Shown piece by piece: positions 1-38,582 of a stretch of DNA of 64,000 nucleotides; position 1 is the first letter of the stretch, and the number at the start of each line of letters is the position of its first letter. The notes below the pieces were generated by a model, which was not told the origin of the DNA, ran no database searches, and worked only from the letters and a program-made list of their open reading frames with translations. Origin of the DNA: a virus; the IMG/VR virus record IMGVR_UViG_3300045988_176431, positions 128,001-192,000 of that record; one strand, 5' to 3'. The position numbers and the translations under genes are program-made.

Positions 1-1
1 T

Positions 2-370: not shown

Positions 371-386
371 AGAAAGGAGAAATGAT

Positions 387-1593: not shown

Positions 1594-1684
1594 ATAGTTT
1601 TTTCAATTATATACTATATTTGTGAATCTAAATAAATAATATAGAGATGGTAAACTCTTATAAAACCAGAAAGGTGGTCTTATT

Positions 1685-2037: not shown

Positions 2038-2038
2038 C

Positions 2039-2206
2039 ATGAAAGGAAAAACTATGTTCCAGCATGTAATTGCTGGAACAATTACGGCAGTTTCGATTCC
2101 TTTGTTATATAAAGGAATCGAAAGTCTCATTGGATTACCGATGAGAAAAAGAGATCTTGACCTTGATGATATTGAGGATGATTTCGAATTTGATGATGAA
2201 GACTAA
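2039..2206 (+). CDS. small membrane protein with acidic tail (55 aa)
   Basis: Hand-translated as MKGKTMFQHVIAGTITAVSIPLLY...DDIEDDFEFDDED. Starts 1 nt after the previous stop. Confidence 0.45.
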   Translation: MKGKTMFQHVIAGTITAVSIPLLYKGIESLIGLPMRKRDLDLDDIEDDFEFDDED

Positions 2207-2226
2207 CTATCTTCATCATCAATTTA

Positions 2227-2268
2227 AAAGAAGAGTCATTTTATCTATATGAACTCTTCTTTTTTTCT
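2227..2268 (+). terminator. intrinsic terminator
   Basis: Stem aaagaagagt / actcttcttt followed by a T-run. Confidence 0.6.
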
Positions 2269-2311
2269 TCACATTATATTAAAACAATTTATAATGAAAG
2301 GAGACATGATT

Positions 2312-2665
2312 ATGAAATATTATGCTTATCTATTATCTAAAGAAGATATAAAAGATGGTAGAAAAAAGGGCTTAGCATATGCTATTAAAAACAAAAATAA
2401 ATGGGTTGATATTTCTGCAGTGAAAGATGAAATAAATACATATGATAAAGGTACCACTGTATTATCTTATAAACAAACAGCCTATAATATTTATAAAGAC
2501 TATGTTTCAATTGATGAACAGTATCGTGTTTATATTTGTGAAGAAAGAGGATATGATTACGATAATAAAGAATTTATTGAAAATACTTTTTATCCAAAAA
2601 AAGAAACTGAAACAACTACACCAGATAAATCCGATTCATCTAAAGATTCTAACACTGGAAAATAA
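2312..2665 (+). CDS. hypothetical protein
   Basis: Start moved to ATG 2312, 8 nt after SD aaaggag. The track start at 2249 lies inside the upstream terminator. Confidence 0.6.
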   Translation: MKYYAYLLSKEDIKDGRKKGLAYAIKNKNKWVDISAVKDEINTYDKGTTVLSYKQTAYNIYKDYVSIDEQYRVYICEERGYDYDNKEFIENTFYPKKETETTTPDKSDSSKDSNTGK

Positions 2666-2667
2666 TT

Positions 2668-2706
2668 TTAAAAGTTGCAGTAGATTTTTTCTACTGCAAC
2701 TTTTAA
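2668..2706 (+). terminator. intrinsic terminator
   Basis: Stem aaaagttgcagtag / ctactgcaactttt. Confidence 0.6.
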
Positions 2707-2772
2707 TTCACTGGTTTTCTTATATATTATATTTATAGTAATTATAGATAATATAAGAAAGGATGATTAATT

Positions 2773-3519
2773 ATGGTAAATGAAATGTTTAATATGTATA
2801 AATACACAATAAAAAATATATTCCCTATATTTGATTTTTGTGTATTAAATAAAGGAATTAAAAAGATTGAGTTAATAACAAGTAAAGAAACTGATAAAGC
2901 GGTTGGATTTGATATAACAACAAATGATGAAAGAAGTCTTTATATTATTAATGATGAGAACTATGATTATACACAACATGATAAATACAGCTCTACATCT
3001 ATACTTATAAAATCTAAACTTTTTACATCTTATTATCAAGTTACAAATGAGATATATCGTGAGAAAAAATATTATGAATACACAAATGAAGATGTTGCAA
3101 ATGGAAAAGACAAGGAATTATTTATATCTAAGATATTAGAAAGACAACCTTGTTTAAAGAATAAAGAAATAACTCTTATTGATGATTGTTTATCATCTGG
3201 TTGTATTGAACGTTATAAATATCATATTAAGATGTTAAATAAAATAAATCAGGCTATATCTGAAGGATTTGTATACAAGTTATTAACTGAAAAAAGGTAT
3301 CTTACAGTCCAATATAAAGAAGGAATTTTAGTTGGTGATTATTTATTACCAATTAATTTTGCATTATTTATTGATAATGATTGTGAAGATGCCAGACTCA
3401 AATTAACAAAGTATGAAAAACAAGCATTAAAGAAAAAATCTTGTAAATTAAAAATAAATATGAAGAAACCTGATTGCATAGGTGCTTATGTATTTGAAAT
3501 TGTAAAGGAAGGTGAATAA
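2773..3519 (+). CDS. hypothetical protein
   Basis: 248-aa ORF with SD aaaggatga upstream. Confidence 0.65.
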   Translation: MVNEMFNMYKYTIKNIFPIFDFCVLNKGIKKIELITSKETDKAVGFDITTNDERSLYIINDENYDYTQHDKYSSTSILIKSKLFTSYYQVTNEIYREKKYYEYTNEDVANGKDKELFISKILERQPCLKNKEITLIDDCLSSGCIERYKYHIKMLNKINQAISEGFVYKLLTEKRYLTVQYKEGILVGDYLLPINFALFIDNDCEDARLKLTKYEKQALKKKSCKLKINMKKPDCIGAYVFEIVKEGE

Positions 3520-3520
3520 T

Positions 3521-5782
3521 ATGTTAGAAGAAGTAAATAACTTAAAAACAATTGGACAAAAATTTGAGTACATGAAATCTCATTTATCTCGTAAAAATAT
3601 GAAAGATATTCGTTTCTTATTAGAAACACCTGAGGTAAAACGATATGTACAGTTTATGGTGAATCGCGGAAGAAGTAATATGAAAGATTTTTCAGAAGAA
3701 GAGTATATTCCTCTTTCTGATTTAGTCTTTATATTACAATCTCTTTATAATTATTCGACTGAAGAATCACCAATTTCAGATGAAGATTATGATGTATTAT
3801 ATGAAATTCTTGAAAATAAAGACATCAATATTATTACAACACCTGTTTTACGAAAAGATGTTGTTCATCATAAATATACTCATTTAAGAGGAACTCTTGA
3901 AAAGATTTATGCCTTAGATGATGAGGAGAATATTTCAAATGAAACAAGAAGAAGACTTAGTGATTGGATTAAAACATCAGAAAAGTCAATTAAGGATTCA
4001 ACAGGTGAAGATGTAAATTTATCAAAAGAAGAAGTGTATATCTTTCCTAAATGGGATGGAGTTTCTATCATTTTTGAGATTGACGAGAATAATAAGATAC
4101 AAAGATCCCTTACTCGAGGGAATACTGAGTTAAATGAAGCAGAAGATGTTACCTTTATTTTTAAACTAATTGAAAGTAAAGTTGTATGCCCTGAAATGAA
4201 AGGAAAAGCATATGGCTTAAAAACAGAGGTAATGATGAAAGAAGATGATTTAGCAAAGTATAACAAAGAACACAATACAGATTATAAATCAACTCGTTCA
4301 ATTGTATCTTCTATTATTAATAGTGATGAGGCAGATGGACGAGAACAACTTTTGGAAATCGTAAAATTAAGAACTAGTATTTTAGATAAGGATGGAAATG
4401 AATCCATTGAAACATTAGTTGATGAAGTATTTGATCGTCCATTTTTAGTATGTTCCTTAGAGGATGTAGAAGCAATTCGTAAGTTTTCATTTCAACATCG
4501 ATATGTTGATGGATTACGATGTGATGGCTCTGTTATCTATCTAAAGAATAAAAAACTTCAAAAAGTGTTAGGTCGTAAAGATGCTAAAAATAAATTTGAA
4601 GTTGCTTACAAATTCAATGAAGAATTTGAATATACAAAACTAAAAGACATCATCTTTCAAGTAGGAACTTTTGGTACAATTAACCCAATTGCAATTATTG
4701 ATCCAGTTGTTATTAAAGGAAACACGATTCAGAGAATCTCACTAGGGTCTATGTATCGATTCTGGGATTTGAAATTATCAAAAGGAGATACTGTAAAAGT
4801 AATCTATGAAATCATTCCTTATCTTGTCTTTGATGAAAATGATGAAAAATGTAAAAAGAGTAAGAATCCTTTAATCGAAGCACCAAAGAGATGCCCTGAA
4901 TGTGGGCATAAATTATCTTATAAAATTGATGAAGAGACTGGAAAACCTGTTTTACCAAAATGTGAGAATCCAGATTGTGATTATATAAAGAAAAAGAAGA
5001 TTGTAAATTATATTCAGAAAATGAATATGAGTGGAATTTCTTATGAGACAATTTCTACTTTATATAATTATAAACTCTTAAAATCAATTAAAGATTTATA
5101 TAAGTTAAAGAAGAAAGACATCAAAAATATTCCAGGATTTGCTGAAATATCGGCAAATCATATCATTGATGAAATTAATAATCATCGAAAAGTTGTAGAT
5201 GCAGATTTACTTGGTTCGATTGGAATTGCACATGCTTCTAAGAAATTATTTCAAAAGATATTCAAAATTTATACAATTGATGAATTAATGGATTTTGCAG
5301 ATGCTGATGAAATTGTTCCTCTCACCTGTATCAATGGAATCAAAGATGCGAAAGCAAAGATTGTATTAAAAGGTGTTCAAAAGAATCGTAGTTTGATATT
5401 ATTCCTTATGGATGAATTAGAGATTATTAGTGCTAGAGATTCTAGAACATTTCAGTGTAGATTCAAAGCATGTTTCACTAAGATACGAAGTGAATCCATT
5501 AAACAGTTGATTGAGAGTTTCAATGGCATTGTTGTAGATAATGTAACAAAAGATACAGATTTTCTTATTGTACCAAGTAAGAATACAGAATCATCTTCTG
5601 TTACAAAAGCAAAGAAATATAAAATTCCAATTATTCCAATTGATAATGTTGAATCATATATAAAAGATAGATTTAACATGAAGAAAACTAAAAAACCTAT
5701 GAGTAATGAAGACATGCTTAAGAAAATTTTTAATAATAAAGATGGAATTCATTTTGAAAACGGGGAACTTTTCTTTGATTAA
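3521..5782 (+). CDS. ligA: NAD-dependent DNA ligase (LigA family)
   Basis: Adenylation motif 'FPKWDGVSI' (KxDG). C4 zinc finger 'CPECGHKL...CENPDC'. HhH-like region and a BRCT-like C-terminus 'FLIVPSKNT...KAKKYKIPIIPID'. ATG 3521 sits behind SD aaggaaggtga. Confidence 0.85.
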   Translation: MLEEVNNLKTIGQKFEYMKSHLSRKNMKDIRFLLETPEVKRYVQFMVNRGRSNMKDFSEEEYIPLSDLVFILQSLYNYSTEESPISDEDYDVLYEILENKDINIITTPVLRKDVVHHKYTHLRGTLEKIYALDDEENISNETRRRLSDWIKTSEKSIKDSTGEDVNLSKEEVYIFPKWDGVSIIFEIDENNKIQRSLTRGNTELNEAEDVTFIFKLIESKVVCPEMKGKAYGLKTEVMMKEDDLAKYNKEHNTDYKSTRSIVSSIINSDEADGREQLLEIVKLRTSILDKDGNESIETLVDEVFDRPFLVCSLEDVEAIRKFSFQHRYVDGLRCDGSVIYLKNKKLQKVLGRKDAKNKFEVAYKFNEEFEYTKLKDIIFQVGTFGTINPIAIIDPVVIKGNTIQRISLGSMYRFWDLKLSKGDTVKVIYEIIPYLVFDENDEKCKKSKNPLIEAPKRCPECGHKLSYKIDEETGKPVLPKCENPDCDYIKKKKIVNYIQKMNMSGISYETISTLYNYKLLKSIKDLYKLKKKDIKNIPGFAEISANHIIDEINNHRKVVDADLLGSIGIAHASKKLFQKIFKIYTIDELMDFADADEIVPLTCINGIKDAKAKIVLKGVQKNRSLILFLMDELEIISARDSRTFQCRFKACFTKIRSESIKQLIESFNGIVVDNVTKDTDFLIVPSKNTESSSVTKAKKYKIPIIPIDNVESYIKDRFNMKKTKKPMSNEDMLKKIFNNKDGIHFENGELFFD

Positions 5783-5803
5783 TCTCATTTCAATATGATA
5801 AAA

Positions 5804-5845
5804 AAGAAGAACAGAGAATTTACTCTCTGTTCTTCTTTTTTTTAT
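5804..5845. terminator. bidirectional terminator between convergent genes
   Basis: Stem aagaagaacagag / ctctgttcttctt flanked by an A-run and a T-run. Confidence 0.7.
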
Positions 5846-5846
5846 T

Positions 5847-6431
5847 TTATAAGTAATATTTTGGATAAGATTCATTAAATAATTTATGACGAATCACATC
5901 ATCAACAACGATTCCTACTAATGATAATAAGAACCATAAATTTGAAAATAATAAACAAATTTGTCCAAGTAGATTATATGCTTGATTAGAATAATCCCAA
6001 ACATCTAAGTGTAACCATAAATTTAGAACACATCCTGATACAAATTCTAATCCTGTAATAATTAAAGATGAAATAACCATTTGTGTTACAATACTCATAG
6101 TTACTAATTCATTGATTAAACCAATAAGAACAAAACATAATCCACCACAAATAAGCATTGATATATGTGTTCGTCCTCGAAAAGCAACTTCGATAGAACC
6201 ATAGATTGCAGATCCAATAATGAATAACATACAACCTTTAAAAAATCGCTTAACTGAAAGAGGAGTTTCTTTTTCACTTCCTACCTGAAATTGCATTACA
6301 AATAAAAATCCCCATAAGATACCCATAAGAAGACATCCTATAAATTTTATATTTATCATATACATAGATATGATTCCAGATAAAAATCCTGCAATAAAGA
6401 AACTAATAAATTCTTTCATATTTTTTTTCAT
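5847..6431 (-). CDS. polytopic membrane protein, PF06541 (DUF1113)-like
   Basis: Multiple TM segments. 'LHLDVWDYSNQAYNLLGQICL' resembles the WDYS motif of that family, as I recall it. Confidence 0.5.
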   Translation of the reverse strand: MKKNMKEFISFFIAGFLSGIISMYMINIKFIGCLLMGILWGFLFVMQFQVGSEKETPLSVKRFFKGCMLFIIGSAIYGSIEVAFRGRTHISMLICGGLCFVLIGLINELVTMSIVTQMVISSLIITGLEFVSGCVLNLWLHLDVWDYSNQAYNLLGQICLLFSNLWFLLSLVGIVVDDVIRHKLFNESYPKYYL

Positions 6432-6440
6432 AAAACCACC

Positions 6441-6701
6441 TCAGACAATCACAATATCACTTACTGCTTGTGTTGCAGCAGATATTAATAATACCTCACG
6501 ACCTGTTACAGATGGCTTCTCTCTTTCTGGAAGTGATGTAGAGACAACAACTTTTGGTCCAATATCATCCTTTAAAGTTGTTCCATCTGTACGTGTTACA
6601 ACACTTTCAATATTTGTTTCAGGATATATAACATCTCTATCTAATGGTTTACTAGCATTAGCTGGAGGTGCATAAATTCTACCTTTTGTAATTACTGCCA
6701 T
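6441..6701 (-). CDS. hypothetical structural-module protein
   Basis: ATG 6701 (MAVITKG) behind SD aaggaaggtg. Promoter motif upstream. Confidence 0.55.
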   Translation of the reverse strand: MAVITKGRIYAPPANASKPLDRDVIYPETNIESVVTRTDGTTLKDDIGPKVVVSTSLPEREKPSVTGREVLLISAATQAVSDIVIV

Positions 6702-6727
6702 AATTGACACCTTCCTTTCCTAATTTT

Positions 6728-6743
6728 TTAATATATTGTCTTT
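6728..6743 (-). promoter_or_regulatory. A-tract/ACA promoter-like motif
   Basis: Coding-strand AAAGACAATATATTAA, 37 nt upstream of ATG 6701. Confidence 0.45.
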
Positions 6744-6984
6744 ACCAATCTTGTTTAAACATTTTAAAAATATCAGCATCAGGTACCTCTTCTTCACCTG
6801 TTGGTACTAACATGAAATCTGAATTATTGGATTCTTTTATAGAAGATGTAATAGTTGGACGATTTAATACATTATCATATCTTGTTGTTGGAAAGATAAT
6901 TCTTTTTTTCTTTTTTGCACCATCTTCTTCAATAATCTCATGAAAAAAACTGTCAGAATATCCAACATTCTTTAATTTACCCAT
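6742..6984 (-). CDS. hypothetical protein
   Basis: 80-aa ORF with SD ggaagtga upstream. Confidence 0.55.
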   Translation of the reverse strand: MGKLKNVGYSDSFFHEIIEEDGAKKKKRIIFPTTRYDNVLNRPTITSSIKESNNSDFMLVPTGEEEVPDADIFKMFKQDW

Positions 6985-7003
6985 ATAGATTCACTTCCTT
7001 TCT

Positions 7004-7180
7004 CTATTCCCCAGTCAAGTAAACATGCTTAATAGAATTATCAAGATTTAATTGATAATTTTCTACTGTACCATCATTTGGCGTGGCAATCATGAAATGA
7101 TCTGTTGGAATATTTTCCATATTAGATTTTTTATCTACAATTGCGTTACTTACATTAAAGTCACGAACATCACTACTCAT
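7004..7180 (-). CDS. small hypothetical protein (58 aa, below track cutoff)
   Basis: Hand-translated as MSSDVRDFNVSNAIVDKK...HVYLTGE. SD aatgaggtga upstream. Fills an otherwise empty gap in the operon. Confidence 0.45.
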   Translation of the reverse strand: MSSDVRDFNVSNAIVDKKSNMENIPTDHFMIATPNDGTVENYQLNLDNSIKHVYLTGE

Positions 7181-7194
7181 ATTATCACCTCATT

Positions 7195-8496
7195 CTACCA
7201 TTTTAATGTACTATTAATTGTGTAATTGGTTAATTCTTCCGTATCTGAGAAGTTTCCAGATGCATTCTTCAAACCAACAAAGAATCCACTCAAATCTGTA
7301 GAATCTTTTGTAAGTCTACCATCAATTGTTTCAACTCTTCCAAATAAATCTTCTAAGTCTTTCATTGAAGTTTCTGCATCTTCAATATCCTCAGTAATAC
7401 CTTTTGCATATACATTACGGAATCTTTCAATCCATAAAGTAATACCGTTAACAATTTCTTCACCTGGTTCTGAAGGATTAACATAAACAGCACCAGAAAA
7501 ACCAACTTTAGCAATTGTTTTTAAAGCAGATTCATAAGCTGGTAATTGAATAAAGTTAATAATACGATTATATGGATTATTATAATCCGTTGGTAAAATT
7601 GTATAATTATCTTTTGTTACAAAGGAACCAATGTAAAGATGAGTAAGAGCAATGATTCTTTCATTCATTTTATCATCATCAATTAATGATTTATAAACTT
7701 TTAAAGCATTTTCATCTTTTACAACATAATCAAGAGCAAGTTTCATTTTATGTAATGAAACATTCATGATTTTAATTGTACAATATTTGGAATTTTCACG
7801 TGTAATATTGAGTTCATCAAATACAGAAAGACTGAATTGATTTAATCTTACATATCCATTCTTTAAAAATGTTGTAACTCCACCATTTTGATCATAACTC
7901 GTGATCAAATATTGTACTTTTGCATTAGATTCTTCGTATCCTTTTTCATCAAAAAGTTTTTTCTCAGAAAGTAAAGTTTCATCTTCACCATCATAATTCT
8001 TTACAATCTGATTATAGATACCTGCACAAAAATCAATTAATGCAAGGTCTCTTGGACGAGCCATAAGATTTAAATAAATACCATTCATTTCTTGTGAGAA
8101 TGTAAATGAACCATTCTTCTCTAATAAGTTATTACTGTAAATTCCACCTGCACCATATTCGATTTTATTTGAATTTTGAATAAAATCCTGTAAATCAATC
8201 ATAGTTGTCATAAAGAACGTGTTTTCAACATCTTTACAATTATAAGAAGCAGGATATTTGAATTTTGGATAATCATTTTTTAAAGCACTTAATTGTGCAA
8301 TATAATCATCTAATTTTAATTTTTCACGATCAAAATAAATAAGAGAACCATCAGATACTCTTTTATAAGCAACTTCACCTGTTCTTTTATCCATTAACGA
8401 TTCACCATTTACTCCACGTTCTCGGTACTTCGTATCTAAGAACGAAGTACCGAAACGCAAGTTTGGTTGAATTGATGATACTGATGTGTTAGCCAC
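7195..8496 (-). CDS. hypothetical virion/tail-module protein
   Basis: 433-aa ORF with GTG start behind SD aaaggagtga. Co-oriented with the giant gene. Confidence 0.65.
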   Translation of the reverse strand: MANTSVSSIQPNLRFGTSFLDTKYRERGVNGESLMDKRTGEVAYKRVSDGSLIYFDREKLKLDDYIAQLSALKNDYPKFKYPASYNCKDVENTFFMTTMIDLQDFIQNSNKIEYGAGGIYSNNLLEKNGSFTFSQEMNGIYLNLMARPRDLALIDFCAGIYNQIVKNYDGEDETLLSEKKLFDEKGYEESNAKVQYLITSYDQNGGVTTFLKNGYVRLNQFSLSVFDELNITRENSKYCTIKIMNVSLHKMKLALDYVVKDENALKVYKSLIDDDKMNERIIALTHLYIGSFVTKDNYTILPTDYNNPYNRIINFIQLPAYESALKTIAKVGFSGAVYVNPSEPGEEIVNGITLWIERFRNVYAKGITEDIEDAETSMKDLEDLFGRVETIDGRLTKDSTDLSGFFVGLKNASGNFSDTEELTNYTINSTLKW

Positions 8497-8509
8497 AATA
8501 TCACTCCTT

Positions 8510-11500
8510 TCAAACTTTTGTTTTTTCAGATTCTATTTCTGTTTCAATAAATTCATCATCATTTCCAGTCATATAAACATTCCATCTATCATGGTCATCT
8601 CCATGATAATAAACATCAGGGTCTAATAAAAGAACATGTGATGGATCTGGATGTTTAACTCCTTCATGAATTTGCTTTACAACATTAATTGCATAAGCAG
8701 TTTTTGTATTTCTAGTTTTCTCATAATCGAAAAGATAGAAATTATTTGTATTTTCATCTTGATATAAATCGAATGTATTATTTGCATTCGTTATTTCTGG
8801 TATATCCGGGTCATATTCTTCAATATGAATACCATCTTTTGAAATATAGTATTCATATCTTGCTACACTTTTTCTTCGAACTTGATAGAAGAATATCCCA
8901 TTAGTGTAACTCATCATAATTTGATTGTAATCTTTTATAGTATCAGTATTCCAATCATAGAAATTTAATCCATTTGTAGAATACATAACTTTATCAGAAA
9001 GTACAATATAAACCATATTTTCAATGGAATGAATCATATCAAATTGAACTTCTTCTGTACAGTTCGGGTAAATATTTAGTTGAGTAATATCATAAGTTTT
9101 ATCTACTAAGTAAATTGAATTTTCTTTCTTCGCATATACTTTATCGATATTATAAAAATATGGAGAATATACCAAGTTTTGATTAATTTCTTCATCTGTT
9201 AATACTTTTGAAATAACCCAATGTTTTCCATCTTGTGTTTCAGCAACTGCCCGATTTACTCGAATTGGATTATCATTTTTATACACATCACCAAAAACAG
9301 CAAGTCTATCTTCAAAAGATAAAACTGCTTCTGGGTATAAGTGATAACGATTTGATAATTTATCTTTTACCGTTATTTTTTTACGATACCAAGATTCTGC
9401 ATCTGTACTCATATAATAATATACTGAATACAATGAGAAGATATACCATTCTCCTTTATTATAAACAACCTTGATATCTTTATTATTTGTTTTTTCTTCA
9501 ATTCCAAAATCAGTAAATGTTAATTTCTTAGAAAGACCATTGAATCCGTTATTGATAAACATCTCAATTCTATCAGGACATCCATAAGAAACAAATCGTT
9601 TACCATTGATTTCTTCATTAAATATAATTGATTCATAATCTTCCGGTTCATCATTAACATTGATTAATTCTTCATAAAGATCTCTCATAATAATATCACA
9701 TTGATCAATCGTTACTTCATGTGAGTCATACCGATAGAAGAGTTTATAAATCAATGAGAAATTGTATCGAATATCATCATGAATGAAAGTTGTTAACTCA
9801 CCAACAGCTAATTTCTTAGGAAGAAGTCTATTATAATAGAATGCTTCAAAGAAATAAGTTTCAATACTTAAATCACGTTCATATTCTTCTGGCTCTTCAC
9901 AAATATGATTATCTGGTGTTTTTCCAGTAATGTCAGTGATTACTCGGTCACGAACTTCATCTTCCATAAAAATTTCATTTAATAAATCAGAAATTGTATA
10001 GTAATTCTTAGCATCACAACCATAATATTCCCAATCCCTATCTTTTTCATAGATTTCTAAGTTGTGAAGAGAATGTACACCAGCAAGTTTAAGTTCAAAA
10101 GGACCAACTGGATAAATGTTATTTCTGCTGATTCTTCGACCGTTTAAATATACTTCAAAATAGCGAATATCAAATGGTTTATCAATGTATCCACGTAAAT
10201 CAATAGTTAGAATATTTGGATTTAAATCATCATCCGTTTTATCATATTTTAATTCTCGTTGATAATAAACTAACTTATTACGATATGGTGTCACATCAAC
10301 TGCAATATCGCTTTCTTTTTTGATAATATCAAGTAACTGAACTCTAGGATATCCGTATCTAAATTGTCCTTCATTCAAAAGTAATTCATAACGATTCTTC
10401 GAAATCAAACGACCATCACGGAATACTCGAATATATTCATTACTTCCACTATCTTTCTTAAATACATAATTTGGATCATCACCAACCTTATCAAGAACTT
10501 CATCTGTTGTATAATATATGTAAGTATCTTGAATTGGATTAGGTTCTGGTTCATCTTTATACCCAAGCGAATTAAAATGATAATAAATAGAATAGTAATC
10601 ATCTCTACCATAATAATCACCAGTTATTTGATTTTCAAATCGGTCTATAAAAAGAGTTTGATTAGATAAAGCAATATCAAAGCATGGATAATTCGTATAC
10701 TCCATTTTTTTATGAATTAAAGAAGATTCTTTTTTCAAAGAAATCTCAATCTCTTTATCTAAGAAATCATCATCAAGGCAAGTAATTCTTACTTTTGAGA
10801 CATTTGCTAATAATACTCCGTTTGTCCGATCAAGTGAACTCTTTCCTTTAGCAACTTTATCATATGAAATATATGATTGATTTCTTTTAATTATCATTGC
10901 ATCATTTGTTTCATAAACCGATATTGGAACATAAAGATTTCCTTTTTCATCTCCATAATGAATCAAACGATATAATTCATCGATTGTAATATCTTTTTCT
11001 CGAATTCTTTGACCATTAAAAGTATAATAACTTCCATCTTCTAAATAATATCCCTGTCCAACATGTAAGAAATAAATCTTTCCATCTTCAATATTATAAT
11101 TACCACCATCTGCAATGATTTGATTTACTTCTTCTACTGTGTACTTTGTTTCTGAAAGTTTTTTACCTTTACTATCGTAATGATAGAAATAATCATAAGA
11201 ATAATCTTTTGCATAGTAATCCAAATCAGTTGGATTCTTATACACAATTGTTGTATATTGTCTTTGAATCAACCCTTCAGGTAAATCAATTTCGATCAAA
11301 GTTTCAATACATTCACCAGCACTATTAAAATGAACATAATATCGATTTACAACCAAGTTATTATTAATATCAAACTCATCTTTCATGACAGGAACATAGA
11401 TATCTTCAGTTGTCGGGTCAATTAATGTAGCATATAAATAAACTTTTTCTTCCCGTTTCACATAGGCTGTAATCATCTTTTCTGTGTCTACATAATAATT

Positions 11501-14021: not shown

Positions 14022-14039
14022 ATTATACTAATGTTTTTT
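14022..14039 (-). promoter_or_regulatory. A-tract/ACA promoter-like motif
   Basis: AAAAAACATTAGTATAAT, 42 nt upstream of ATG 13990. Confidence 0.6.
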
Positions 14040-14503: not shown

Positions 14504-14521
14504 AAAAAACAGTAATTTAAG
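14504..14521 (+). promoter_or_regulatory. A-tract/ACA promoter-like motif
   Basis: AAAAAACAGTAATTTAAG, 37 nt upstream of ATG 14548. Confidence 0.6.
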
Positions 14522-17232: not shown

Positions 17233-17260
17233 CTAAGTTCACCTTCCTTTTTTACTTTTT

Positions 17261-17277
17261 ATATCTGTGTTTTTTTA
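17261..17277 (-). promoter_or_regulatory. A-tract/ACA promoter-like motif
   Basis: AAAAAAACACAGATAT, 37 nt upstream of ATG 17232. Confidence 0.5.
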
Positions 17278-17360: not shown

Positions 17361-19247
17361 ATGATTGACTTTAATAATGATCATACATTACTGATTGATG
17401 TTCAGTATGTAAATGGAAATAAAAAAGAAAAACAACCGGATATGTTATATGTCATTTGGAAAGATACAAGAAAAAATGAAAAACATCTGGAAATTATCCC
17501 AGAACCTAAAATGACAATATATTTTGAAAAAGAAGAATTTAGAAATCATGATTATAATTTAAATTATCAAGAAAAAAAGAAAATGGTTCCTCTTACCTGT
17601 AAATATAAAGATATTAAATTTGCAATCGCAAATGAAATGGGTGAACCAGGAAAAAGATTTTTAGAGAATGTATTCTCAACAAAACGATATGGTGATTTAA
17701 GAGAATTAAATCGATATCCATTCGTGTTTGGACATGATTTTGATATTCGTACTTATTATCGATATCATTGGAGTAAATCCTGTCCAGAACCAAAAGAAAA
17801 GAAATTTAGTATTGGATTTTTGGATATCGAGACAGATTCTTTCGATATTGAAGGGTTCACAGATTCTGCAACTTGTCCAGTAGACTTGGTAACAATTATT
17901 GATTCAGAACATATGAAATCATATACATTAGCACTTACTGGACAAATTTATGAAGAGAAAGATTTTTCTCATATTCCAGATAGTGACCCAAATAAAAAAA
18001 GATTAATTGAAGAGGAACATGAAAGAAAAAAATGGCACGATTACAGAAATCAACAAGAAGATGAGTTGATTAATAACTTAGATAAATTAAAAGATGAACT
18101 TCATGAGATGTTTGATGAAACTTATGGAGAATTAGAATATAATTTTTATTTTTATAAGAGTGAAAAGAAGTTATTGATTCATTTATTTCAGTTGATTAAT
18201 CAATTAAAACTTGATTTTATGTTAATTTGGAATATGTCATTCGATATTCCTTATCTTATTGATCGAATGATGATCAATGGATTAGACCCAAAAGAAATTA
18301 TGTGTCATCCAGATTTTCCAGTTAAAGAGTGCCGCTTTAATAAAGATACGAGAAATTTTGAAGTTAAAAATAAATCCGATAACTTCCAATTAAGTTCTTA
18401 TACTATTTTTTATGACCAAATGATTCTATATGCAGCAATTCGTAAAGGACAAGAAGAACTTCGTTCTCATAAATTGAATTATATTGGTGAACGTGAAGTA
18501 GGTGATAAAAAATTAGATTACTCGGAAGAAGGAAATATCAAAAAACTTCCTTATGTGAATTATTGGAAATATGTTATTTACAATATTAAGGACGTTCTTC
18601 TTCAGATGGGAATTGAAAGAGCGACAGATGATATTAGTACTCTTTATGTAACATCTTATGAAAACTTAACTAGTTACAAAGATGTATTTAAACAAACCGT
18701 TGTACTTCGTAATGTACAATATAAATCTTTCTTATCAAAAGGATTGGTGCCAGGTGCAAATATTAACCAATTGGATATATTCTCAAATAAAAATAAGAAT
18801 ACTTTTGATGATGGTGAAAAAGAGGATGATGATGGAGTAAACTTTGAGGGTGCTCTTGTAGGTAATCCTTTATTAATTAACAAATTTGGGTCTGAGATTT
18901 ATGGAAAAAAGACAAATTATTTGTTTGATTTCTCAATTGATATGGATATGTCAGCATTTTATCCAAATACAATTCATGTATTAAATATTGATGCATCTAC
19001 CTTAATATTCAAAGCAATTGTTGACCCGAGACAATATGATGTAAGAGGTGGAAAAATTCCTTTTAAAGGAATTACTGATGTCCAATTAGTAAAAGAAAAT
19101 GATGATAGTTTTAAGGATGATATTGGTGGAGAAATCTTTGATAACTTCCACTCTAAGAATTATCTATCCTTAGGATATAAATTTTTAAATTTACCATCAG
19201 CAGAAGAAATGCAAAAAATATTAGAAAATGAGGTAGATAAAGGATGA
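17361..19247 (+). CDS. family-B DNA polymerase, N-terminal fragment (exonuclease domain plus motif A)
   Basis: ExoI 'FLDIETDS', ExoII 'NMSFDIPYL', ExoIII 'YNIKDVLL', motif A 'DMDMSAFYPNTI'. Motif B (KxxxNSxYG) and motif C (YGDTDS) are absent before the stop. ATG 17361 behind SD gaggtga. Confidence 0.8.
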   Translation: MIDFNNDHTLLIDVQYVNGNKKEKQPDMLYVIWKDTRKNEKHLEIIPEPKMTIYFEKEEFRNHDYNLNYQEKKKMVPLTCKYKDIKFAIANEMGEPGKRFLENVFSTKRYGDLRELNRYPFVFGHDFDIRTYYRYHWSKSCPEPKEKKFSIGFLDIETDSFDIEGFTDSATCPVDLVTIIDSEHMKSYTLALTGQIYEEKDFSHIPDSDPNKKRLIEEEHERKKWHDYRNQQEDELINNLDKLKDELHEMFDETYGELEYNFYFYKSEKKLLIHLFQLINQLKLDFMLIWNMSFDIPYLIDRMMINGLDPKEIMCHPDFPVKECRFNKDTRNFEVKNKSDNFQLSSYTIFYDQMILYAAIRKGQEELRSHKLNYIGEREVGDKKLDYSEEGNIKKLPYVNYWKYVIYNIKDVLLQMGIERATDDISTLYVTSYENLTSYKDVFKQTVVLRNVQYKSFLSKGLVPGANINQLDIFSNKNKNTFDDGEKEDDDGVNFEGALVGNPLLINKFGSEIYGKKTNYLFDFSIDMDMSAFYPNTIHVLNIDASTLIFKAIVDPRQYDVRGGKIPFKGITDVQLVKENDDSFKDDIGGEIFDNFHSKNYLSLGYKFLNLPSAEEMQKILENEVDKG

Positions 19248-19840
19248 AACAAAAAAGTGATAAAGACATTATAAGAGATTTATTTGTAAAACTAAAACCA
19301 ATCTTTTTTTCTGATGTATATATTTATGATTGGAAATATATTATTGAAGGAGAAGATTCTGATAAAAGAATTAGCGGAAGATACTTATGTATATTAAAAG
19401 ATAAATACGTAGATGCATTGAAAGTATTATTTCCAAATGCTAAAGTTTTATATATTGAAGATTTGATAAAGATAAAAGATGATATGGACCAATATTATCA
19501 AGAGAAAAACGATAAAAGTCTTCTATATGAATTAATCGTTAAAAAAAGATTGCAAGAGAGTGAAAAAAATAATTGGAAAAAAATAATTGAAGAGTGTGAA
19601 GGAATTGATCATATCATTTATGATTTAAATCACATTTATACAATTAAAACAAAACGAAATGATGAATGTATTGAAGTTGGGAAACCATTACTACCAACGA
19701 TAACAGCAAAAAGTATTCAAGAACTTCTATTTTGTATTAATTATGATACAGAGAGAGAACTATATGATATTAATTTCAAACATAATCATTCACATTTTGA
19801 ATTATTTATGAAATATTATGCAGTTCCTATGAAGGAATAA
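19244..19840 (+). CDS. hypothetical protein (no polymerase motifs)
   Basis: ATGA overlap with the polymerase fragment; 198 aa. Confidence 0.6.
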   Translation: MKQKSDKDIIRDLFVKLKPIFFSDVYIYDWKYIIEGEDSDKRISGRYLCILKDKYVDALKVLFPNAKVLYIEDLIKIKDDMDQYYQEKNDKSLLYELIVKKRLQESEKNNWKKIIEECEGIDHIIYDLNHIYTIKTKRNDECIEVGKPLLPTITAKSIQELLFCINYDTERELYDINFKHNHSHFELFMKYYAVPMKE

Positions 19841-19886
19841 GTAAATAGAGATAGACAGATTTTCCTGTCTATCTCTATTTACTTTT
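19841..19886. terminator. bidirectional terminator
   Basis: 18-bp stem gtaaatagagatagacag / ctgtctatctctatttac. Confidence 0.75.
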
Positions 19887-19888
19887 AA

Positions 19889-20746
19889 TCATGAGGTAAT
19901 ATTTCTTGAGAGATTTAATGAGTAACATCTAACTGAACGATTAGAACTTGGAGTTATAAAAACACCAGTACCCAAAGGATATCCTGTTTTGGATCCATCT
20001 TCATTACTATCGATAGATATTCCAACTGCTGAATTCCAAGCATTTGATATAAAATTTCTACCAGATTTTGTTAAATATGCTACAGGCATTATACCATATT
20101 CAGCGAATATTGGGTGTGTTAAATCAAGGAAAAAAATATTTTTTTCCGATGTATGATTATCAATTATATGAATACAAAATACTTTTTGTACATCTTGATT
20201 ACTTGAAATATCGTTCCAATGAATTTTACCGTCAGACCAATCTCCTGAATTTGCTAATTGTATAAGATATCCCTTGCTATTATCTCCTGTTACCAATTGA
20301 TCTTCATTTATTTCGCTAAATGAATCGGTTAAAGCTAATATTTTTGCAGTATGTGCTGATATTACAGCAGAATTAGAACCAGAGCTTGAGCTAGAAGATA
20401 AATCTTTTATCTTATTATTAAGAGTTGTTATCTTAGTATTTAAGTCCTGTTGTACTTGATATACCATGTTAGGAGTTACTACAGCGGAATCTCCAGGATA
20501 AGGAGTTGTAGTAGTAACTTTAGGGAGAAATGCTCCATCCTTTAAATCATAAACAGCCTTGTTAATCACCTTTAATGCATTACGTAATGTTAAAGGAGAA
20601 GAGGATTTCACGATATTATGTGAAGTACCTATAAGGTCGTCGTAACCATTTTGAGAATAAACAGCATCCATATCTGTATATGGTAAATATGTGTTTTTTT
20701 CATCATTTTCATTGTATAAGTTTAAAAAAGCACGATAAGTTGCCAT
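19889..20746 (-). CDS. putative receptor-binding/tail-fibre protein, currently expressed variant (C-terminal cassette 1)
   Basis: 285-aa ORF. The start, SD and promoter motif lie in the 256-bp spacer between the inverted repeats. A Ser-rich linker precedes the unique C-terminus. Confidence 0.7.
   Translation of the reverse strand: MATYRAFLNLYNENDEKNTYLPYTDMDAVYSQNGYDDLIGTSHNIVKSSSPLTLRNALKVINKAVYDLKDGAFLPKVTTTTPYPGDSAVVTPNMVYQVQQDLNTKITTLNNKIKDLSSSSSSGSNSAVISAHTAKILALTDSFSEINEDQLVTGDNSKGYLIQLANSGDWSDGKIHWNDISSNQDVQKVFCIHIIDNHTSEKNIFFLDLTHPIFAEYGIMPVAYLTKSGRNFISNAWNSAVGISIDSNEDGSKTGYPLGTGVFITPSSNRSVRCYSLNLSRNITS
20427..20632. repeat. inverted repeat, left arm (206 bp)
   Basis: Exact reverse complement of 20889-21094, checked 10-mer by 10-mer against the printed sequence. 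Confidence 0.95.
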
Positions 20747-20888
20747 TAATAATCATTCCTTTCTTTATAAAAATTTCCTATATTTATTATAGGATTGTTT
20801 TTATACAAAATATGATACATTTTTATTGTATTTTTTGTCCCATACTTTTAAAAAACTGTCTTTTGAAGTCTATTAATATCATAAATAC
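20633..20888. other. putative invertible segment carrying promoter motif, SD, ATG and codons 1-38
   Basis: Bounded by perfect 206-bp inverted repeats. Contains ATG 20746 (minus strand) and motif taaaaacaatcctataa (20787-20803, minus strand). Confidence 0.6.
20787..20803 (-). promoter_or_regulatory. A-tract/ACA promoter-like motif inside the invertible segment
   Basis: TAAAAACAATCCTATAA, 51 nt upstream of ATG 20746. Confidence 0.5.
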
Positions 20889-21094
20889 ATAGGTACTTCA
20901 CATAATATCGTGAAATCCTCTTCTCCTTTAACATTACGTAATGCATTAAAGGTGATTAACAAGGCTGTTTATGATTTAAAGGATGGAGCATTTCTCCCTA
21001 AAGTTACTACTACAACTCCTTATCCTGGAGATTCCGCTGTAGTAACTCCTAACATGGTATATCAAGTACAACAGGACTTAAATACTAAGATAAC
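20889..21094. repeat. inverted repeat, right arm (206 bp)
   Basis: Exact reverse complement of 20427-20632. Confidence 0.95.
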
Positions 21095-21653
21095 TGCTAT
21101 GACCAATCGAATTTCTAAATTAGAAAGTAATGAAATAACAGAAGAAACTATTTATGATATAAATTCTAGAGTAAATTGGATATATAGTTCATTGATTAGT
21201 AAGTTACCTGAACCAATTGATGACTCTGGTGAAATTACTGAAACAGAATCATCATATGATGTTGTTCTTGGAAAAACGTCAAATATAGAAGTTAAGTATA
21301 GTGACTTATATGAACATTATAAAGGAAAAATTATTTTTGTTCATGTACGTGCTGTTCTTCAAGATCATAGTACATCTTTTAATGCGTATTATTCGTTAGA
21401 CCTTACAAATAAATTAAGCAAATTCGGACAACAAAAATTAAGGTTTTTATTTGGTACTGATAATAATTTAAATATTATATTAGATAAGGATTATTTTGAA
21501 TCAGAAACGACGATGAAAAATATCTTTAAGAATTCTACTATTGTGGGTTCTAAAAATGCTGCTACTATAACATTTAATGTAGATAATAGTGGAGAGATTT
21601 GGAAATTTCAAGTTAAAACATATAATGAAAATATTTTCAAATCAAGAATATAA
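20889..21653 (+). CDS. silent alternative C-terminal cassette 2 (no start codon or SD of its own)
   Basis: The frame reads IGTSHNIVKSSSPL...QQDLNTKIT, identical to cassette 1, then a different ~185-aa C-terminus. There is a stop codon 5 codons upstream of the repeat and no SD. It has its own terminator. Confidence 0.65.
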   Translation: MGTSHNIVKSSSPLTLRNALKVINKAVYDLKDGAFLPKVTTTTPYPGDSAVVTPNMVYQVQQDLNTKITAMTNRISKLESNEITEETIYDINSRVNWIYSSLISKLPEPIDDSGEITETESSYDVVLGKTSNIEVKYSDLYEHYKGKIIFVHVRAVLQDHSTSFNAYYSLDLTNKLSKFGQQKLRFLFGTDNNLNIILDKDYFESETTMKNIFKNSTIVGSKNAATITFNVDNSGEIWKFQVKTYNENIFKSRI

Positions 21654-21661: not shown

Positions 21662-21698
21662 AAAATCAGACGGTGAATTATTTTCACCGTCTGATTTT
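21662..21698. terminator. bidirectional terminator
   Basis: 16-bp stem aaaatcagacggtgaa / ttcaccgtctgatttt. Confidence 0.75.
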
Positions 21699-22464: not shown

Positions 22465-22481
22465 ATTAAGATAATGTTTTT
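22465..22481 (-). promoter_or_regulatory. A-tract/ACA promoter-like motif
   Basis: AAAAACATTATCTTAAT, 43 nt upstream of ATG 22433. Confidence 0.6.
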
Positions 22482-22542: not shown

Positions 22543-22560
22543 AAAAAACATTAAATTAAT
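22543..22560 (+). promoter_or_regulatory. A-tract/ACA promoter-like motif
   Basis: AAAAAACATTAAATTAAT, 40 nt upstream of ATG 22590. Confidence 0.6.
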
Positions 22561-24333: not shown

Positions 24334-24351
24334 AAAAAACAATGAATTAAC
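24334..24351 (+). promoter_or_regulatory. A-tract/ACA promoter-like motif
   Basis: AAAAAACAATGAATTAAC, 39 nt upstream of ATG 24380. Confidence 0.6.
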
Positions 24352-28680: not shown

Positions 28681-28697
28681 TTAAACTAATGTTTTTT
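28681..28697 (-). promoter_or_regulatory. A-tract/ACA promoter-like motif
   Basis: AAAAAACATTAGTTTAA, 35 nt upstream of ATG 28655. Confidence 0.6.
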
Positions 28698-28789: not shown

Positions 28790-30027
28790 ATGGTAAATAA
28801 TATTAAAAAAGAACAAAGAGCAAATATCTTAAAGAATCTAAAAGATATTAAAATGTCCAAATTAAAGATCAAAATGGATATTACGACATTAGATATGATT
28901 ATATCGTTCTTATATAAAGATAGCGTATTAAGAACAAGAAAAACCATGAATAACATTATGAAATTAATGAATTCATTGGATTATCGAATTTATGAAAATG
29001 ATGATAATGAACCATATATCATGTCACGTATTTGGATTATACAAAAAACGTTAGAAGCAAGATTAATTGAGGGTTTTGCAAACGATGACATGATTAAACA
29101 ATATTGTTTTGACCATCCAGATTGTGATGAGTATAAAAAAGAAATATTAGAAGATGTTCTAAAACATGGAGCAAAGATTACTCATGATGAGAGTAAATAC
29201 TTAATTAAGCAAATTGATGACCGTTTAAATTTTGGTTATACGATTACCTTAAAAGAAATTTTTATGGAACTTCTAAATCGTTTGGATGAAGGAGATTTTA
29301 GAAGTTATAAAGCAATATCAGAAGATTTATATCAAATTGCATCTTCTGTAATAAATATCAGACGTTCCACAAGCAGTCTTGGTGCAGACCAAACATTTTC
29401 ATTACAAGATGAGATATTCCAAACAGTAATTCCAGATGCATTGAATCGATTAAAAGATAGGAATCGAATTTTTATTACTGGAATACGTCGTTGGAATACT
29501 ATTTTATCCCCTGGATATATGAGTAAACGTCTCTATACATATTTAGCATTTCCGGGTGGTGGTAAAAGTCAAATCTTATTAAAAACAGCACTTGATGTTA
29601 GAAAATATAATACAAGGATTCAAACAAAGAATCCAGATAAAAGACCTGCTGTTTTATTTATTACAATGGAAAATAGTATTGAAGAAACAGTAGAGCGAAT
29701 TTTTAATATGACAGCTTCGAATGATGACATTCGAAATTATACAGAAAAACAAGTAATAAAGAAATTAAAAACAGAGGGTGGACTTACTTTAACAGAGAAA
29801 AATAATATTGATATTATCATTCAATATTATGATAATAGAAGTATTGATACAAATGATTTATATGGTATCATACAGGATTTAGAGGATGAAGGAATTGAAA
29901 CAGTAATGCTTATCCTCGATTATGTAAAACGTATTCGTCCAGCAGAAAAAGGAGAAAGCGAAAAAATAGAATTAAAAAATATTACAAATGAATTAAAATC
30001 ACTTGCAAATTATTTCGACATACCCGT
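28790..30027 (+). CDS. DnaB-type replicative helicase, exon 1
   Basis: Walker A 'AFPGGGKSQ' and Walker B/H2 'LILDYVKRIRP', then 'LKSLANYFDIPV'. The frame runs into a stop where the H3 motif is expected. Confidence 0.8.
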
Positions 30028-30398
30028 TGACAACACAGCGGCATAAATTTTATATTTATGAAAACCTATCTAATTGCGGGGAACTATCTATAATTAATAA
30101 CTACTAACTTATGATGGTGACATACATAAGGGCAAGGGTTAACTCCTAAGGTATAGTAAAAAGGTTATTGATTGATACAATCGACGCAGCGAAGTATCTT
30201 ATATAATAATATATTAAGATATGAGTTCAACGACTATCGAAAGTATAGGTTAAGAGAAATACTTAACTGAATAAACGAGTAGAGTAGACCAGAATATCTG
30301 GGTGCATGAAATTGATGCTTTACGAAACGGTAGGGATATTATATTTGGTGGCAGAATATAATATCATGATATAGTCTATTTAATTAAAAAATTAAATG
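30028..30398 (+). ncRNA. predicted group I self-splicing intron (no internal ORF)
   Basis: The conserved helicase frame resumes 371 nt downstream. The 5' exon ends in U (30027). CCCGU (30023-30027) can pair with GCGGG (30076-30080), giving the U-G wobble of P1. The last intron base is G (30398). The splice restores the frame as DIPV-VTAQQLNR. Confidence 0.6.
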
Positions 30399-30885
30399 TG
30401 TAACAGCACAACAGTTAAATCGTGTAGCGGCTAGTGTAGTAGATGCTGCTATCCAAGCAAAAAAAGAAGATGTAACACGATTAGTTGGTCGAGATGGTAT
30501 TGCAGGTGCATGGGAAATTATTGAGAATTCAGATTTTGTTTGTATTTTGAATCAAGAAGTAAAGATGGATACTGGTGATTTATATATGACATTTAAATTA
30601 CTAAAACGCCGTTATCGTTCAGCAGAAGAAAGCGAGAAATTAAGGAAACTTGAATATTTCAACCATCCTTACTCAAAAGAAAATGAAATTCAACTTATTG
30701 ATGATGTATATTTAGAAAAATCCGTATCATTAACAAGTCTTGCTACTCAATTTATGGGTGCTGAAGAAATTAGTAAGCGTGGAAAGAAAAATGCTGTAGA
30801 AAGAAAGAATACAAAAGATAAGAAAAATGATACATTATATGATTTGGAATTTGAACCTTTTGATTTTAATAAATCACTCAATTAA
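30399..30885 (+). CDS. DnaB-type replicative helicase, exon 2
   Basis: 'TAQQLNR' (H3), 'GAWEIIENSDFVCILNQE' (H4-like) and 'FKLLKRRYR'. There is no start codon or SD at the beginning of this frame. Confidence 0.8.
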
Positions 30886-30898
30886 AAGGAAAATATAT

Positions 30899-30945
30899 AA
30901 AAGAGATAAAAAATAAATACTTATCTCTTTTATATATTATTTTTA
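30899..30945 (+). terminator. intrinsic terminator
   Basis: Stem aaaagagataa / ttatctctttt with a T-rich tail. Confidence 0.55.
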
Positions 30946-30976
30946 TGAATTTAATAAAGAAAGGATGAATAAAAAA

Positions 30977-34227: not shown

Positions 34228-34707
34228 ATGAGTAAATTTAACTTAGAGGATTTAATTTTAAATGAAAAAGATGCTACAAATCCAAAGACTTATACTATTA
34301 AGATAGACAGAAAATTTAATGATGAAACTTTGGTAAATTTTAGTGCTGCAATTATTACACACTATATCAAAAATAAAATAAATGATTCTCCTGAAATAGA
34401 AGAAATTATTATTAATGAGAATCTAATTTCGTATGATGATCGAAAAGCCATATTTTATTCTTTATTAAATCTCCTTCATTATAAAAATAATGAGAATGAT
34501 AGTTTGTTTCATATAACAAAAGAAAATATTAGTGATTGTTTATGTTTACTTTATACAGCAATAAAGGGTTTTTATTATGAAGATCATTGTAAACACTTGG
34601 TTTATAGATTATTTGAAATATTAAAAGTAAAAGGTTATAAGCAATGTGATATTACTTTAGATAGTATTAAAATACAAATTACAGAATCAACAAATGATAA
34701 AGAATAA
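34228..34707 (+). CDS. paralog family member 4
   Basis: 'HCKHLVYRLFEILKVKGYKQCDITL'. Confidence 0.6.
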   Translation: MSKFNLEDLILNEKDATNPKTYTIKIDRKFNDETLVNFSAAIITHYIKNKINDSPEIEEIIINENLISYDDRKAIFYSLLNLLHYKNNENDSLFHITKENISDCLCLLYTAIKGFYYEDHCKHLVYRLFEILKVKGYKQCDITLDSIKIQITESTNDKE

Positions 34708-34739
34708 ATATAAAAAAAGAAAGAAATGATTCATTTCAT
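34701..34739 (+). repeat. 'gene end plus terminator' repeat, degenerate copy R1
   Basis: agaataaatataaaaaaagaaagaaatgatt matches R2 and R3 over 31 nt, then diverges. It includes the TAA stop of the upstream gene. Confidence 0.8.
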
Positions 34740-34761
34740 GCGGAATTTTGGAGGTGAAAAT

Positions 34762-35580: not shown

Positions 35581-35630
35581 ATTAAGAGAATAAATATAAA
35601 AAAAGAAAGAAATGATTAATTTCATTTCTT
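35581..35630 (+). repeat. 'gene end plus terminator' repeat, copy R2 (50 nt identical to R3)
   Basis: attaagagaataaatataaaaaaagaaagaaatgattaatttcatttctt is identical to 38004-38053. Confidence 0.95.
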
Positions 35631-38003: not shown

Positions 38004-38053
38004 ATTAAGAGAATAAATATAAAAAAAGAAAGAAATGATTAATTTCATTTCTT
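38004..38053 (+). repeat. 'gene end plus terminator' repeat, copy R3
   Basis: 50 nt identical to 35581-35630. Confidence 0.95.
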
Positions 38054-38563: not shown

Positions 38564-38582
38564 AAAAAAACATTCATTTAAT
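38564..38582 (+). promoter_or_regulatory. A-tract/ACA promoter-like motif
   Basis: AAAAAAACATTCATTTAAT, 43 nt upstream of ATG 38615. Confidence 0.6.

Follow-up and report, generated by a model that had tools for sequence, protein, structure and literature searches.

Within the 64,000 nucleotides (nt) of viral DNA analysed here (IMG/VR record IMGVR_UViG_3300045988_176431, positions 128,001 to 192,000; hereafter the window), a 256-nt spacer lies between the arms of a 206-nt perfect inverted repeat and separates two outward-facing cassettes that encode unrelated C-terminal parts of a protein. We consider it very likely that this locus is a real, reversible, two-state DNA inversion switch. A single late promoter, a single Shine–Dalgarno (SD) sequence and codons 1–38 would travel together on the 256-base-pair (bp) segment and flip between the two cassettes, neither of which has a promoter or a start codon of its own. 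In the orientation of the window, the common N-terminus would be joined to cassette A to give a protein of 285 amino acids (aa), and in the inverted orientation the same N-terminus would be joined to cassette B to give one of 292 aa. Taken as a whole, a two-state switch that alters a gene, is flipped by homologous recombination and serves a late, virion-associated adhesin is the best explanation of the locus and, in our judgement, a probable one.

The 206 nt at 20427–20632 are the exact reverse complement of 20889–21094, with 0 mismatches, which bears out the perfect repeat described in an earlier note made from the sequence. A repeat search extends the inverted repeat to 219 nt at 97% with the arms 256 nt apart, and just inward and just outward of the 206 nt the identity of the arms drops to chance. 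At 29% GC, a perfect repeat of 206 nt is far beyond chance, and no other inverted repeat in the window exceeds 47 nt. The left arm, read on the minus strand, encodes residues 39–106 (IGTSHNIV...NTKI) and two bases of codon 107; the right arm, on the plus strand, is its reverse complement. Between them, the spacer (20633–20888, −) holds codons 1–38 (MATYRAF...NGYDDL; 20633–20746, −) with the sole start codon for either cassette (ATG at 20746), the SD sequence GAAAGGA, read from the sequence 10 nt upstream of the ATG (20757–20763, −), the late promoter motif and about 86 nt of conserved non-coding DNA.

Cassette A (19889–20426, −), with about 179 codons and a stop, is ON in the window: it completes the left open reading frame (ORF) at 19889–20746 (−), which starts with MATYRAF and encodes 285 aa. 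Cassette B (21095–21653, +), with about 186 codons and a stop, is silent. Its frame (20889–21653, +) runs for 254 codons on from the arm with neither an ATG nor an SD sequence, and is closed by an in-frame TAA at 20874–20876 (+), five codons upstream of the right arm. Gene callers give this frame a 247-aa ORF from an internal GTG at 20910; we rejected independent expression of the silent cassette from that codon because it has no SD sequence, no late-promoter motif points toward it and the in-frame stop lies upstream. The two C-termini have no detectable similarity to each other (BLASTP E = 20), and each cassette ends at a hairpin terminator. One, with a 20-bp perfect stem (19840–19883), is common to cassette A and a convergent gene of 198 aa; the other (21662–21698) stands between cassette B and a convergent late gene of 242 aa. 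An Rfam scan returned terminator hairpins only, below threshold. The spacer with its sole ATG, SD and 38 codons, the start-less right cassette behind a stop, the separate terminators and the unrelated C-termini had all been claimed in the earlier note, and the sequence and its ORFs agree with it on each. When the spacer is flipped in silico, the gene of the window becomes a 292-aa product of the N-terminus and cassette B.

Both spacer orientations in public assemblies

A protein search recovered two full-length kinds of homologue, which share the MATYRAF N-terminus and continue into either an A-type C-terminus (P0001 and P0002) or a B-type one (P0004–P0007 and P0011); the homologues of cassette A are P0001–P0003. 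The full-length B-type proteins P0004–P0007 and P0014 come from other assemblies. At loci L002–L006 and L017, the flanking genes keep the order and orientation of the window and the 256-nt spacer is reverse-complemented; there, the B-type cassette is full (290–292 aa) and the A-type cassette is truncated (240–241 aa). The 292-aa product obtained by flipping the window is exactly the public protein P0014, which is found on two contigs (L009 and L010). On both contigs the spacer is reversed; apart from this, the DNA matches the window at 100% over the right flank (2420 nt in L009, BENG15-1_SAMEA2784486, and 1198 nt in L010, ERZ27250536) and over the arm with the spacer (515 nt and 482 nt, respectively). 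Conversely, the product from flipping L006 is exactly P0001. The in-frame fusion to the other cassette that the earlier note expected after inversion thus exists as a public protein, and opposite spacers occur between the same flanks.

The window comes from a metagenomic scaffold of human-gut origin, 254,052 bp long (ENA ERZ28573464, BENG15-1_SAMEA2784487 scaffold_59), and L009 carries the same study label, BENG15-1, with an adjoining BioSample number. Another assembly of the window strain (L018, ERR636388) is labelled PRJEB7369, a study in which 35 students were sampled before and after travel (PMC5725903); we take BENG15-1 to be this travel study. Because the sequence is identical in adjacent BioSamples, the comparison suggests that L009 (SAMEA2784486) and the window (SAMEA2784487) may be the phage of one person in two states. 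Comparative data of this kind support the flip-switch reading.

A further set of evolutionary observations does not depend on how the assemblies were oriented. The arms are perfect within every genome examined (206 or 210 nt). Between genomes they differ at up to 11 positions over 27–197, and each difference is present in both arms of its genome, a pattern that indicates concerted evolution of the arms. A crossover at a fixed site would shift polymorphisms between the arms and would not erase them; homologous recombination or gene conversion therefore acts on them. All 13 loci are identical in a stretch that starts shortly upstream of the promoter motif and reaches into the N-terminal codons, and residues 48–101 are nearly invariant in all homologues. 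Three exchangeable cassette types (A, B and C) are replaced between strains: on the side of the DNA polymerase, the cassette is either A or the third type, C (in L001, L013 and L015), which is a distant paralogue of B.

Silent cassettes are intact and in frame. In comparison with the divergent strain L002, both cassettes have a proportion of synonymous differences (pS) of 0.25–0.33 and a ratio of non-synonymous to synonymous rates (dN/dS) of 0.53–0.67. A frame of 180 codons would not stay open without selection in DNA of 29% GC, and selection therefore probably acts on the silent cassettes. Changes in cassette B between the window and the close strains L001 and L006 are nearly all non-synonymous, on small counts; for L001, there are 0.7 synonymous and 17.3 non-synonymous changes.

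Two loci have lost an arm. At L016 (Logan ERR14001267, 2780–4150), 19 nt of the left arm and about 55 nt of cassette A are left, and the locus carries a C-type cassette followed by remnants of a B cassette with stops in all frames. At L014 (UMIH01043846.1), the right arm is gone, cassette B is down to its last 24 nt and the junction has microhomology. Both are best read as natural 'locked' derivatives, in which one arm has disappeared and the unused cassette has been lost or degraded.

Predicted late promoter and candidate function of the product

The spacer holds exactly one copy of the motif AAAAACA-N6-TAA, of which the window has 13 copies against 1.8 expected, a 7-fold enrichment; none of 100 shuffles reaches 13. 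The spacer copy (AAAAACA-ATCCTA-TAA; 20787–20802, −, with AACA at 20796–20799) lies 41 nt upstream of the ATG, and no copy points at the silent cassette. This motif fits the consensus that experiments have established for the late promoters of Bacillus phage AR9, AACA-(6N)-TA/G, the last base of which is the start site (PMC5312081). Transcription of the switch gene is predicted to start at the A at 20788 (−), which is followed by a 42-nt leader, the SD sequence GAAAGGA and the ATG at 20746. The earlier note had recognised a promoter-like motif here as a 17-mer; as such, the 17-mer is not repeated, and what holds is the shorter AAAAACA-N6-TAA, which is real, enriched and present once in the spacer.

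Most copies of the motif sit a few tens of nt upstream of gene starts. They precede the genes for a head–tail joining protein, the prohead protease, a virion structural protein, an RNA polymerase beta'-like protein and a 760-aa tail-fibre-like protein. The copies outside the spacer are at 14023–14038 (−), 14505–14520 (+), 17259–17274 (−), 22466–22481 (−), 22544–22559 (+), 24335–24350 (+), 28681–28696 (−), 38566–38581 (+), 48912–48927 (−), 55082–55097 (−), 55364–55379 (−) and 60521–60536 (+). Since the spacer carries an AR9-type motif that also stands upstream of structural genes, the switch gene appears to belong to the late regulon, beside several structural genes. The motif further suggests that this gut phage may use an AR9-like promoter code, read by a non-virion RNA polymerase. 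The RNA polymerase beta'-like gene itself lies at 45396–48902 (−), with a late-promoter motif in front.

A receptor-binding or adhesin role for the switch protein is, in our estimate, slightly more likely than not. The product would be a late, virion-associated fibre or baseplate-peripheral protein, and its C-terminal domain would set adsorption specificity, giving progeny of two host specificities. An AlphaFold2 model of the N-terminus with cassette B is confident only in a C-terminal beta-rich domain (about residues 150–288), where the predicted local distance difference test (pLDDT) score is 70–88. Predicted helices at residues 92–118 and 123–138 lie around and after the end of the repeat and before the beta domain. 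The top Foldseek matches of this model are a baseplate component of phage KP1, T4 gp9 (1qex), and tailspike, tail-fibre and baseplate wedge proteins. The late promoter, the succession of invariant N-terminus, helices and exchangeable C-terminus, and the excess of non-synonymous changes would fit a short fibre or a baseplate-peripheral adhesin.

Mechanism of inversion and alternative explanations

General recombination functions of the phage or of its host, in place of a dedicated invertase, would carry out the flipping through homologous recombination or gene conversion between the two arms of 206 bp, and the spacer would be inverted either intramolecularly or by a double exchange between replicating genomes. 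We give homologous recombination about an even chance of being the mechanism, and favour it ahead of an invertase encoded elsewhere because no recombinase was found in about 84 kb and the arm holds no significant dyad site. No window ORF of at least 120 aa contains a resolvase, integrase or transposase domain, in keeping with the earlier note, which saw no invertase in the 64 kb. The search beyond the window that it proposed was run for 10 kb past each end, and the precomputed Pfam matches of the called genes there include no recombinase. The roughly 84 kb so screened make up about one third of the genome, and the window extends about 20 kb to one side of the locus and 43 kb to the other. No further copies of an arm or cassette, as in a shufflon, are present in this DNA. 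The best candidates for a dyad crossover sub-site in the arm are no better than those of shuffled sequence (177–299 of 300 shuffles reach the observed score), although a divergent site may exist. We entertain, more tentatively, a programmed switch that is free of any recombinase, in which the 256-bp module with its late promoter for a phage RNA polymerase would be flipped by the phage's own general recombination or replication machinery, and each burst would contain virions with one or the other of two unrelated adsorption domains as a form of host-range bet-hedging.

Several observations weigh against the best explanation given at the outset. Short-read assemblies cannot prove orientation across a 206-nt repeat, and the contigs are supportive, not decisive: because short reads and k-mers of the usual length do not span the repeat, the orientation can be fixed by read pairs or long reads alone, and all four junctions are identical in either orientation of the spacer. 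A concrete example of an assembly breaking at the repeat is the MEGAHIT contig L018 (k127, 138,075 bp), which is 100% identical to window positions 1–10785 and, by coordinate arithmetic, ends at about window position 20553, 127 nt (= k) into the left arm; several short contigs also end in or beside an arm. How an assembled contig is oriented depends on the resolution of its read pairs, so that in some assemblies the choice could be arbitrary, and collapsing of bulges by an assembler could exaggerate the perfect identity of the arms. A loop of 256 bp is short for intramolecular synapsis of 206-bp arms, and the other ~170 kb of the genome may encode an invertase or a dedicated recombination function. 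Close strain pairs have a dN/dS of at least 1 on few substitutions, which would fit diversifying selection or relaxed constraint. With regard to function, neither product has a Pfam, PHROG, PDB sequence or PDB profile match. An exhaustive HMMER search makes this an orphan family, with 2 representative clusters among 1.8 billion proteins, in this lineage only. The Foldseek matches are weak (E ~1e-3 to 6e-5, full-length template-modelling (TM) scores of ~0.2–0.3), and the AlphaFold model of the cassette A product was unusable (pLDDT 32) and was discarded. The receptor-binding role claimed in the earlier note thus keeps the late motif, the modular layout and the weak fibre and baseplate matches, and lacks a sequence match in Pfam, PHROG or PDB; of the structural comparison of both C-termini that it proposed, the part for domain B could be made.

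A real switch driven by a site-specific serine or tyrosine invertase, supplied from the remaining ~170 kb or by the host, is in our view rather unlikely. Its short site would lie in or at the edge of the arms, and the long repeat would be shared coding sequence with occasional gene conversion. Known invertases are normally adjacent to their targets, and here neither the ~20 kb and 43 kb at the sides of the locus nor the 10 kb past each window end encode a recombinase domain; no dyad-symmetric sub-site of the arm rises above chance; and homogenisation of the arms over 27–197 needs homologous recombination or conversion anyway, which, already acting on the arms, would therefore be sufficient by itself to invert the spacer. 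The precedents point the other way. The classical phage tail-fibre switches (Mu Gin, P1 Cin, e14 Pin and p15B Min) are, as far as is known, all invertase-driven, and the P1 C segment combines 0.6-kb inverted repeats with short cix sites at the ends of those repeats, so long repeats and site-specific recombination can coexist. The reach of the screen, one third of the genome, also leaves room for an invertase, and invertible regions with no nearby recombinase gene are noted by Milman et al. (PMC9881135).

The assembly limits also bear on a reading with no switch at all, in which two divergent paralogues with a gene-converted segment in common would sit unchanged at the locus and the orientations would be arbitrary choices of the assembler. 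The copy that lacks a start codon would then be a young pseudogene or would be translated from GTG 20910. An inverted repeat of 206 nt defeats the ordering of sequence by short-read de Bruijn assemblers, the MEGAHIT contig and several short ones do stop in or near an arm, and gene callers do call the 247-aa ORF. We nevertheless regard this reading as improbable. The silent copy lacks an SD sequence, none of the late-promoter motifs faces it, and a stop in its frame immediately precedes the arm; both cassettes are intact across strains, with dN/dS below 1 at a pS of ~0.3, whichever is silent; and at loci without one of the arms, the unused cassette has been deleted or degraded. One orientation recurs in four assemblies of the L002 strain and, for the window strain, in the ENA scaffold and a JGI/IMG contig of 254,365 bp, a recurrence per strain that argues against arbitrary assembler choice, though it is not proof. 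The exact 285-aa product of the window is encoded on that JGI/IMG contig, unlike what a coin flip would predict, and the JGI/IMG cluster of this product includes a silent B copy (247 aa) from a contig of equal length. Contigs long enough to cross the locus must owe their resolution to read pairs. That the right arm and cassette are a spurious inverted duplication or chimeric join is scarcely credible. Inverted chimeras do occur in some amplified libraries, and the earlier note had raised an assembly duplication of the right-hand copy as a formal possibility that would overturn its reading. This is effectively refuted by the recurrence of the architecture, with differing cassettes, in more than 10 independent assemblies from several studies and pipelines (ENA, JGI/IMG, IMG/VR and Logan), and each arm leads, without loss of frame, to a unique and conserved cassette with a terminator of its own.

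For temperate phages with an invertase, the programmed inversion of tail-fibre genes is a textbook matter; to our knowledge, this does not extend to large gut phages without signs of lysogeny. If the inversion switch is real, a large gut phage would alternate a late, probably virion-surface protein by means of a minimal module with no adjacent recombinase, natural 'locked' derivatives would arise by deletion of one arm, and host-range bet-hedging in the gut virome may exceed what invertase-based annotation searches detect. Short-read assemblies break or choose arbitrarily at such loci, and gene callers label the silent cassette a truncated 'gene' of 240–247 aa, hiding the switch. The design is compact, with ~670 bp of control DNA, and, if enzyme-free, could be a template for engineering dual-receptor phages. 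The switch hypothesis is directly testable on existing public reads (PRJEB7369 and others).

Related systems and genomic setting

In switches of the Mu and P1 type, the constant part and the promoter lie outside a 3–4 kb invertible segment that carries the variable ends and cassette-specific assembly chaperones; these phages are temperate, with an adjacent invertase gene and dyad crossover sites of ~26 bp. As in Mu G and P1 C, inversion of phage DNA would here join one constant 5′ part to unrelated alternative 3′ parts, with alternative specificity of a virion protein as the likely purpose, and as in P1 the long inverted repeats are coding sequence. By comparison, however, the locus is inside-out: the flipped unit of 256 bp holds the promoter, the SD sequence and 38 codons, and the cassettes stay fixed outside it. 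No chaperone genes, invertase or dyad site were found at this locus in the ~84 kb screened, and the phage, unlike the temperate Mu and P1, is a jumbo myophage that carries RNA polymerase genes of its own.

The system nearest to this one, both in its logic and in the probable mechanism, may be the S-layer switch of Campylobacter fetus sapA, for which Dworkin and Blaser are said to have described, in 1996–97, a RecA-dependent inversion without a dedicated invertase. Both systems would place a single promoter on a segment between opposed cassettes that share a long conserved 5′ coding region. The sapA segment is reportedly 6.2 kb with other genes on it, between repeats of ~600 bp, and each sap cassette is said to have its own start codon; in the window, the promoter shares its segment of 256 bp with the start codon and 38 codons, and the carrier is a phage. 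The vsa locus of Mycoplasma pulmonis (HvsR) and the SusC/SusD shufflons of Bacteroides fragilis (Tsr-type) are bacterial systems with site-specific recombinases, short sites and many cassettes. With these the locus shares an expression site, made of a promoter and a 5′ coding end, that is joined by inversion to silent 5′-truncated genes. In promoter invertons of the fimS/hin kind, a dedicated recombinase acts on short repeats (about 9–30 bp), and flipping turns expression ON or OFF or recodes the product; promoter and intragenic invertons are reportedly treated by Jiang (2019) and by Chanin et al. The window's locus resembles fimS-type invertons in that a short segment flanked by inverted repeats, carrying a promoter motif or coding sequence, would flip, and differs in its 206-bp coding repeats, in the lack of a recombinase in the DNA screened and in an outcome of ON-A or ON-B.

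A literature search found a comparable layout described for bacteria and none for phages. Milman et al. (2023) describe one upstream part of a coding sequence whose several alternative downstream parts are exchanged by inversion; their survey covers bacterial genomes and prophages, usually with a nearby recombinase, and tail-fibre genes are enriched among the targets (PMC9881135). In the part of that survey cited here, no jumbo phage with such a minimal, inside-out topology appears. For cyanophages of the A-1(L)/Elbi type, a region of ~30 kb between inverted repeats of 400–700 nt is present as two isomers in populations, and the authors suggest a possible inversion without a dedicated recombinase; as far as the cited part of that preprint extends, no gene fusion or alternative product is reported at the repeat, unlike at the present locus (bioRxiv 10.64898/2026.02.14.705889).

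The genome to which the window belongs encodes a major head protein, tail sheath, tail tube, S80 prohead protease and head–tail joining protein, together with a split-type family B DNA polymerase, a DnaB-like helicase, an NAD ligase and the RNA polymerase beta'-like protein. The phage is a human-gut jumbo myophage of ~254 kb. Its nearest isolates by capsid protein, very distant at 24% identity, are the ~265-kb Staphylococcus jumbo phages S6, Madawaska, MarsHill and PALS_2. SD words of the AAGGAAGGTGA type are enriched upstream of the window's genes, and their strength fits a low-GC Gram-positive host. No lysogeny gene was found in the ~84 kb screened, a nucleotide search of the locus against 50,697 GenBank phages gave no match, and a scan of GTDB genomes for a host or prophage copy gave 0 matches; scans of IMG/VR and JGI for the locus returned one contig each.

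Around the locus, the gene order is a 1826-aa gene, the DNA polymerase, the 198-aa gene, the two cassettes and the 242-aa gene. Neither the 198-aa nor the 242-aa gene could be placed in a family by PHROGs, Pfam, PDB sequence or PDB profile searches. About 40 kb from the switch, the 760-aa protein (60570–62852, +) is probably the main tail fibre. It matches PHROG tail-protein families and, faintly, XkdV_N, and has two internal repeats (83 and 95 nt) in three copies each at 61535–62295, containing ...LSNTSTNAISNKA...HTSNSTIHITADERKKWN. A resemblance of the switch N-terminus to the repeat motif of this protein was tested, and none was found.

Just outside the window, a ThyX (Thy1) thymidylate synthase gene lies at 8239–8880 of L018, and may bear on thymine use in this relative of uracil-DNA phages. 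An exact 50-nt direct repeat, ATTAAGAGAATAAATATAAAAAAAGAAAGAAATGATTAATTTCATTTCTT, is intergenic at 35581–35630 and 38004–38053, with a further copy at 78% identity at 34695–34744; a terminator or regulatory cassette common to these sites is one possible role. A 291-aa ORF (57321–58196, −), the neighbour of the major head protein gene, contains a tandemly duplicated 132-nt unit (57655–57918; 95% identical). The DnaB-like helicase has 418 aa in the window (28790–30965) versus 519 aa in the L002 strain (18235–20873), where it is followed by a TnpB-like ORF (Cas12f1-like_TNB, 433 aa) that is absent from the window strain and looks like a strain-specific mobile-element insertion.

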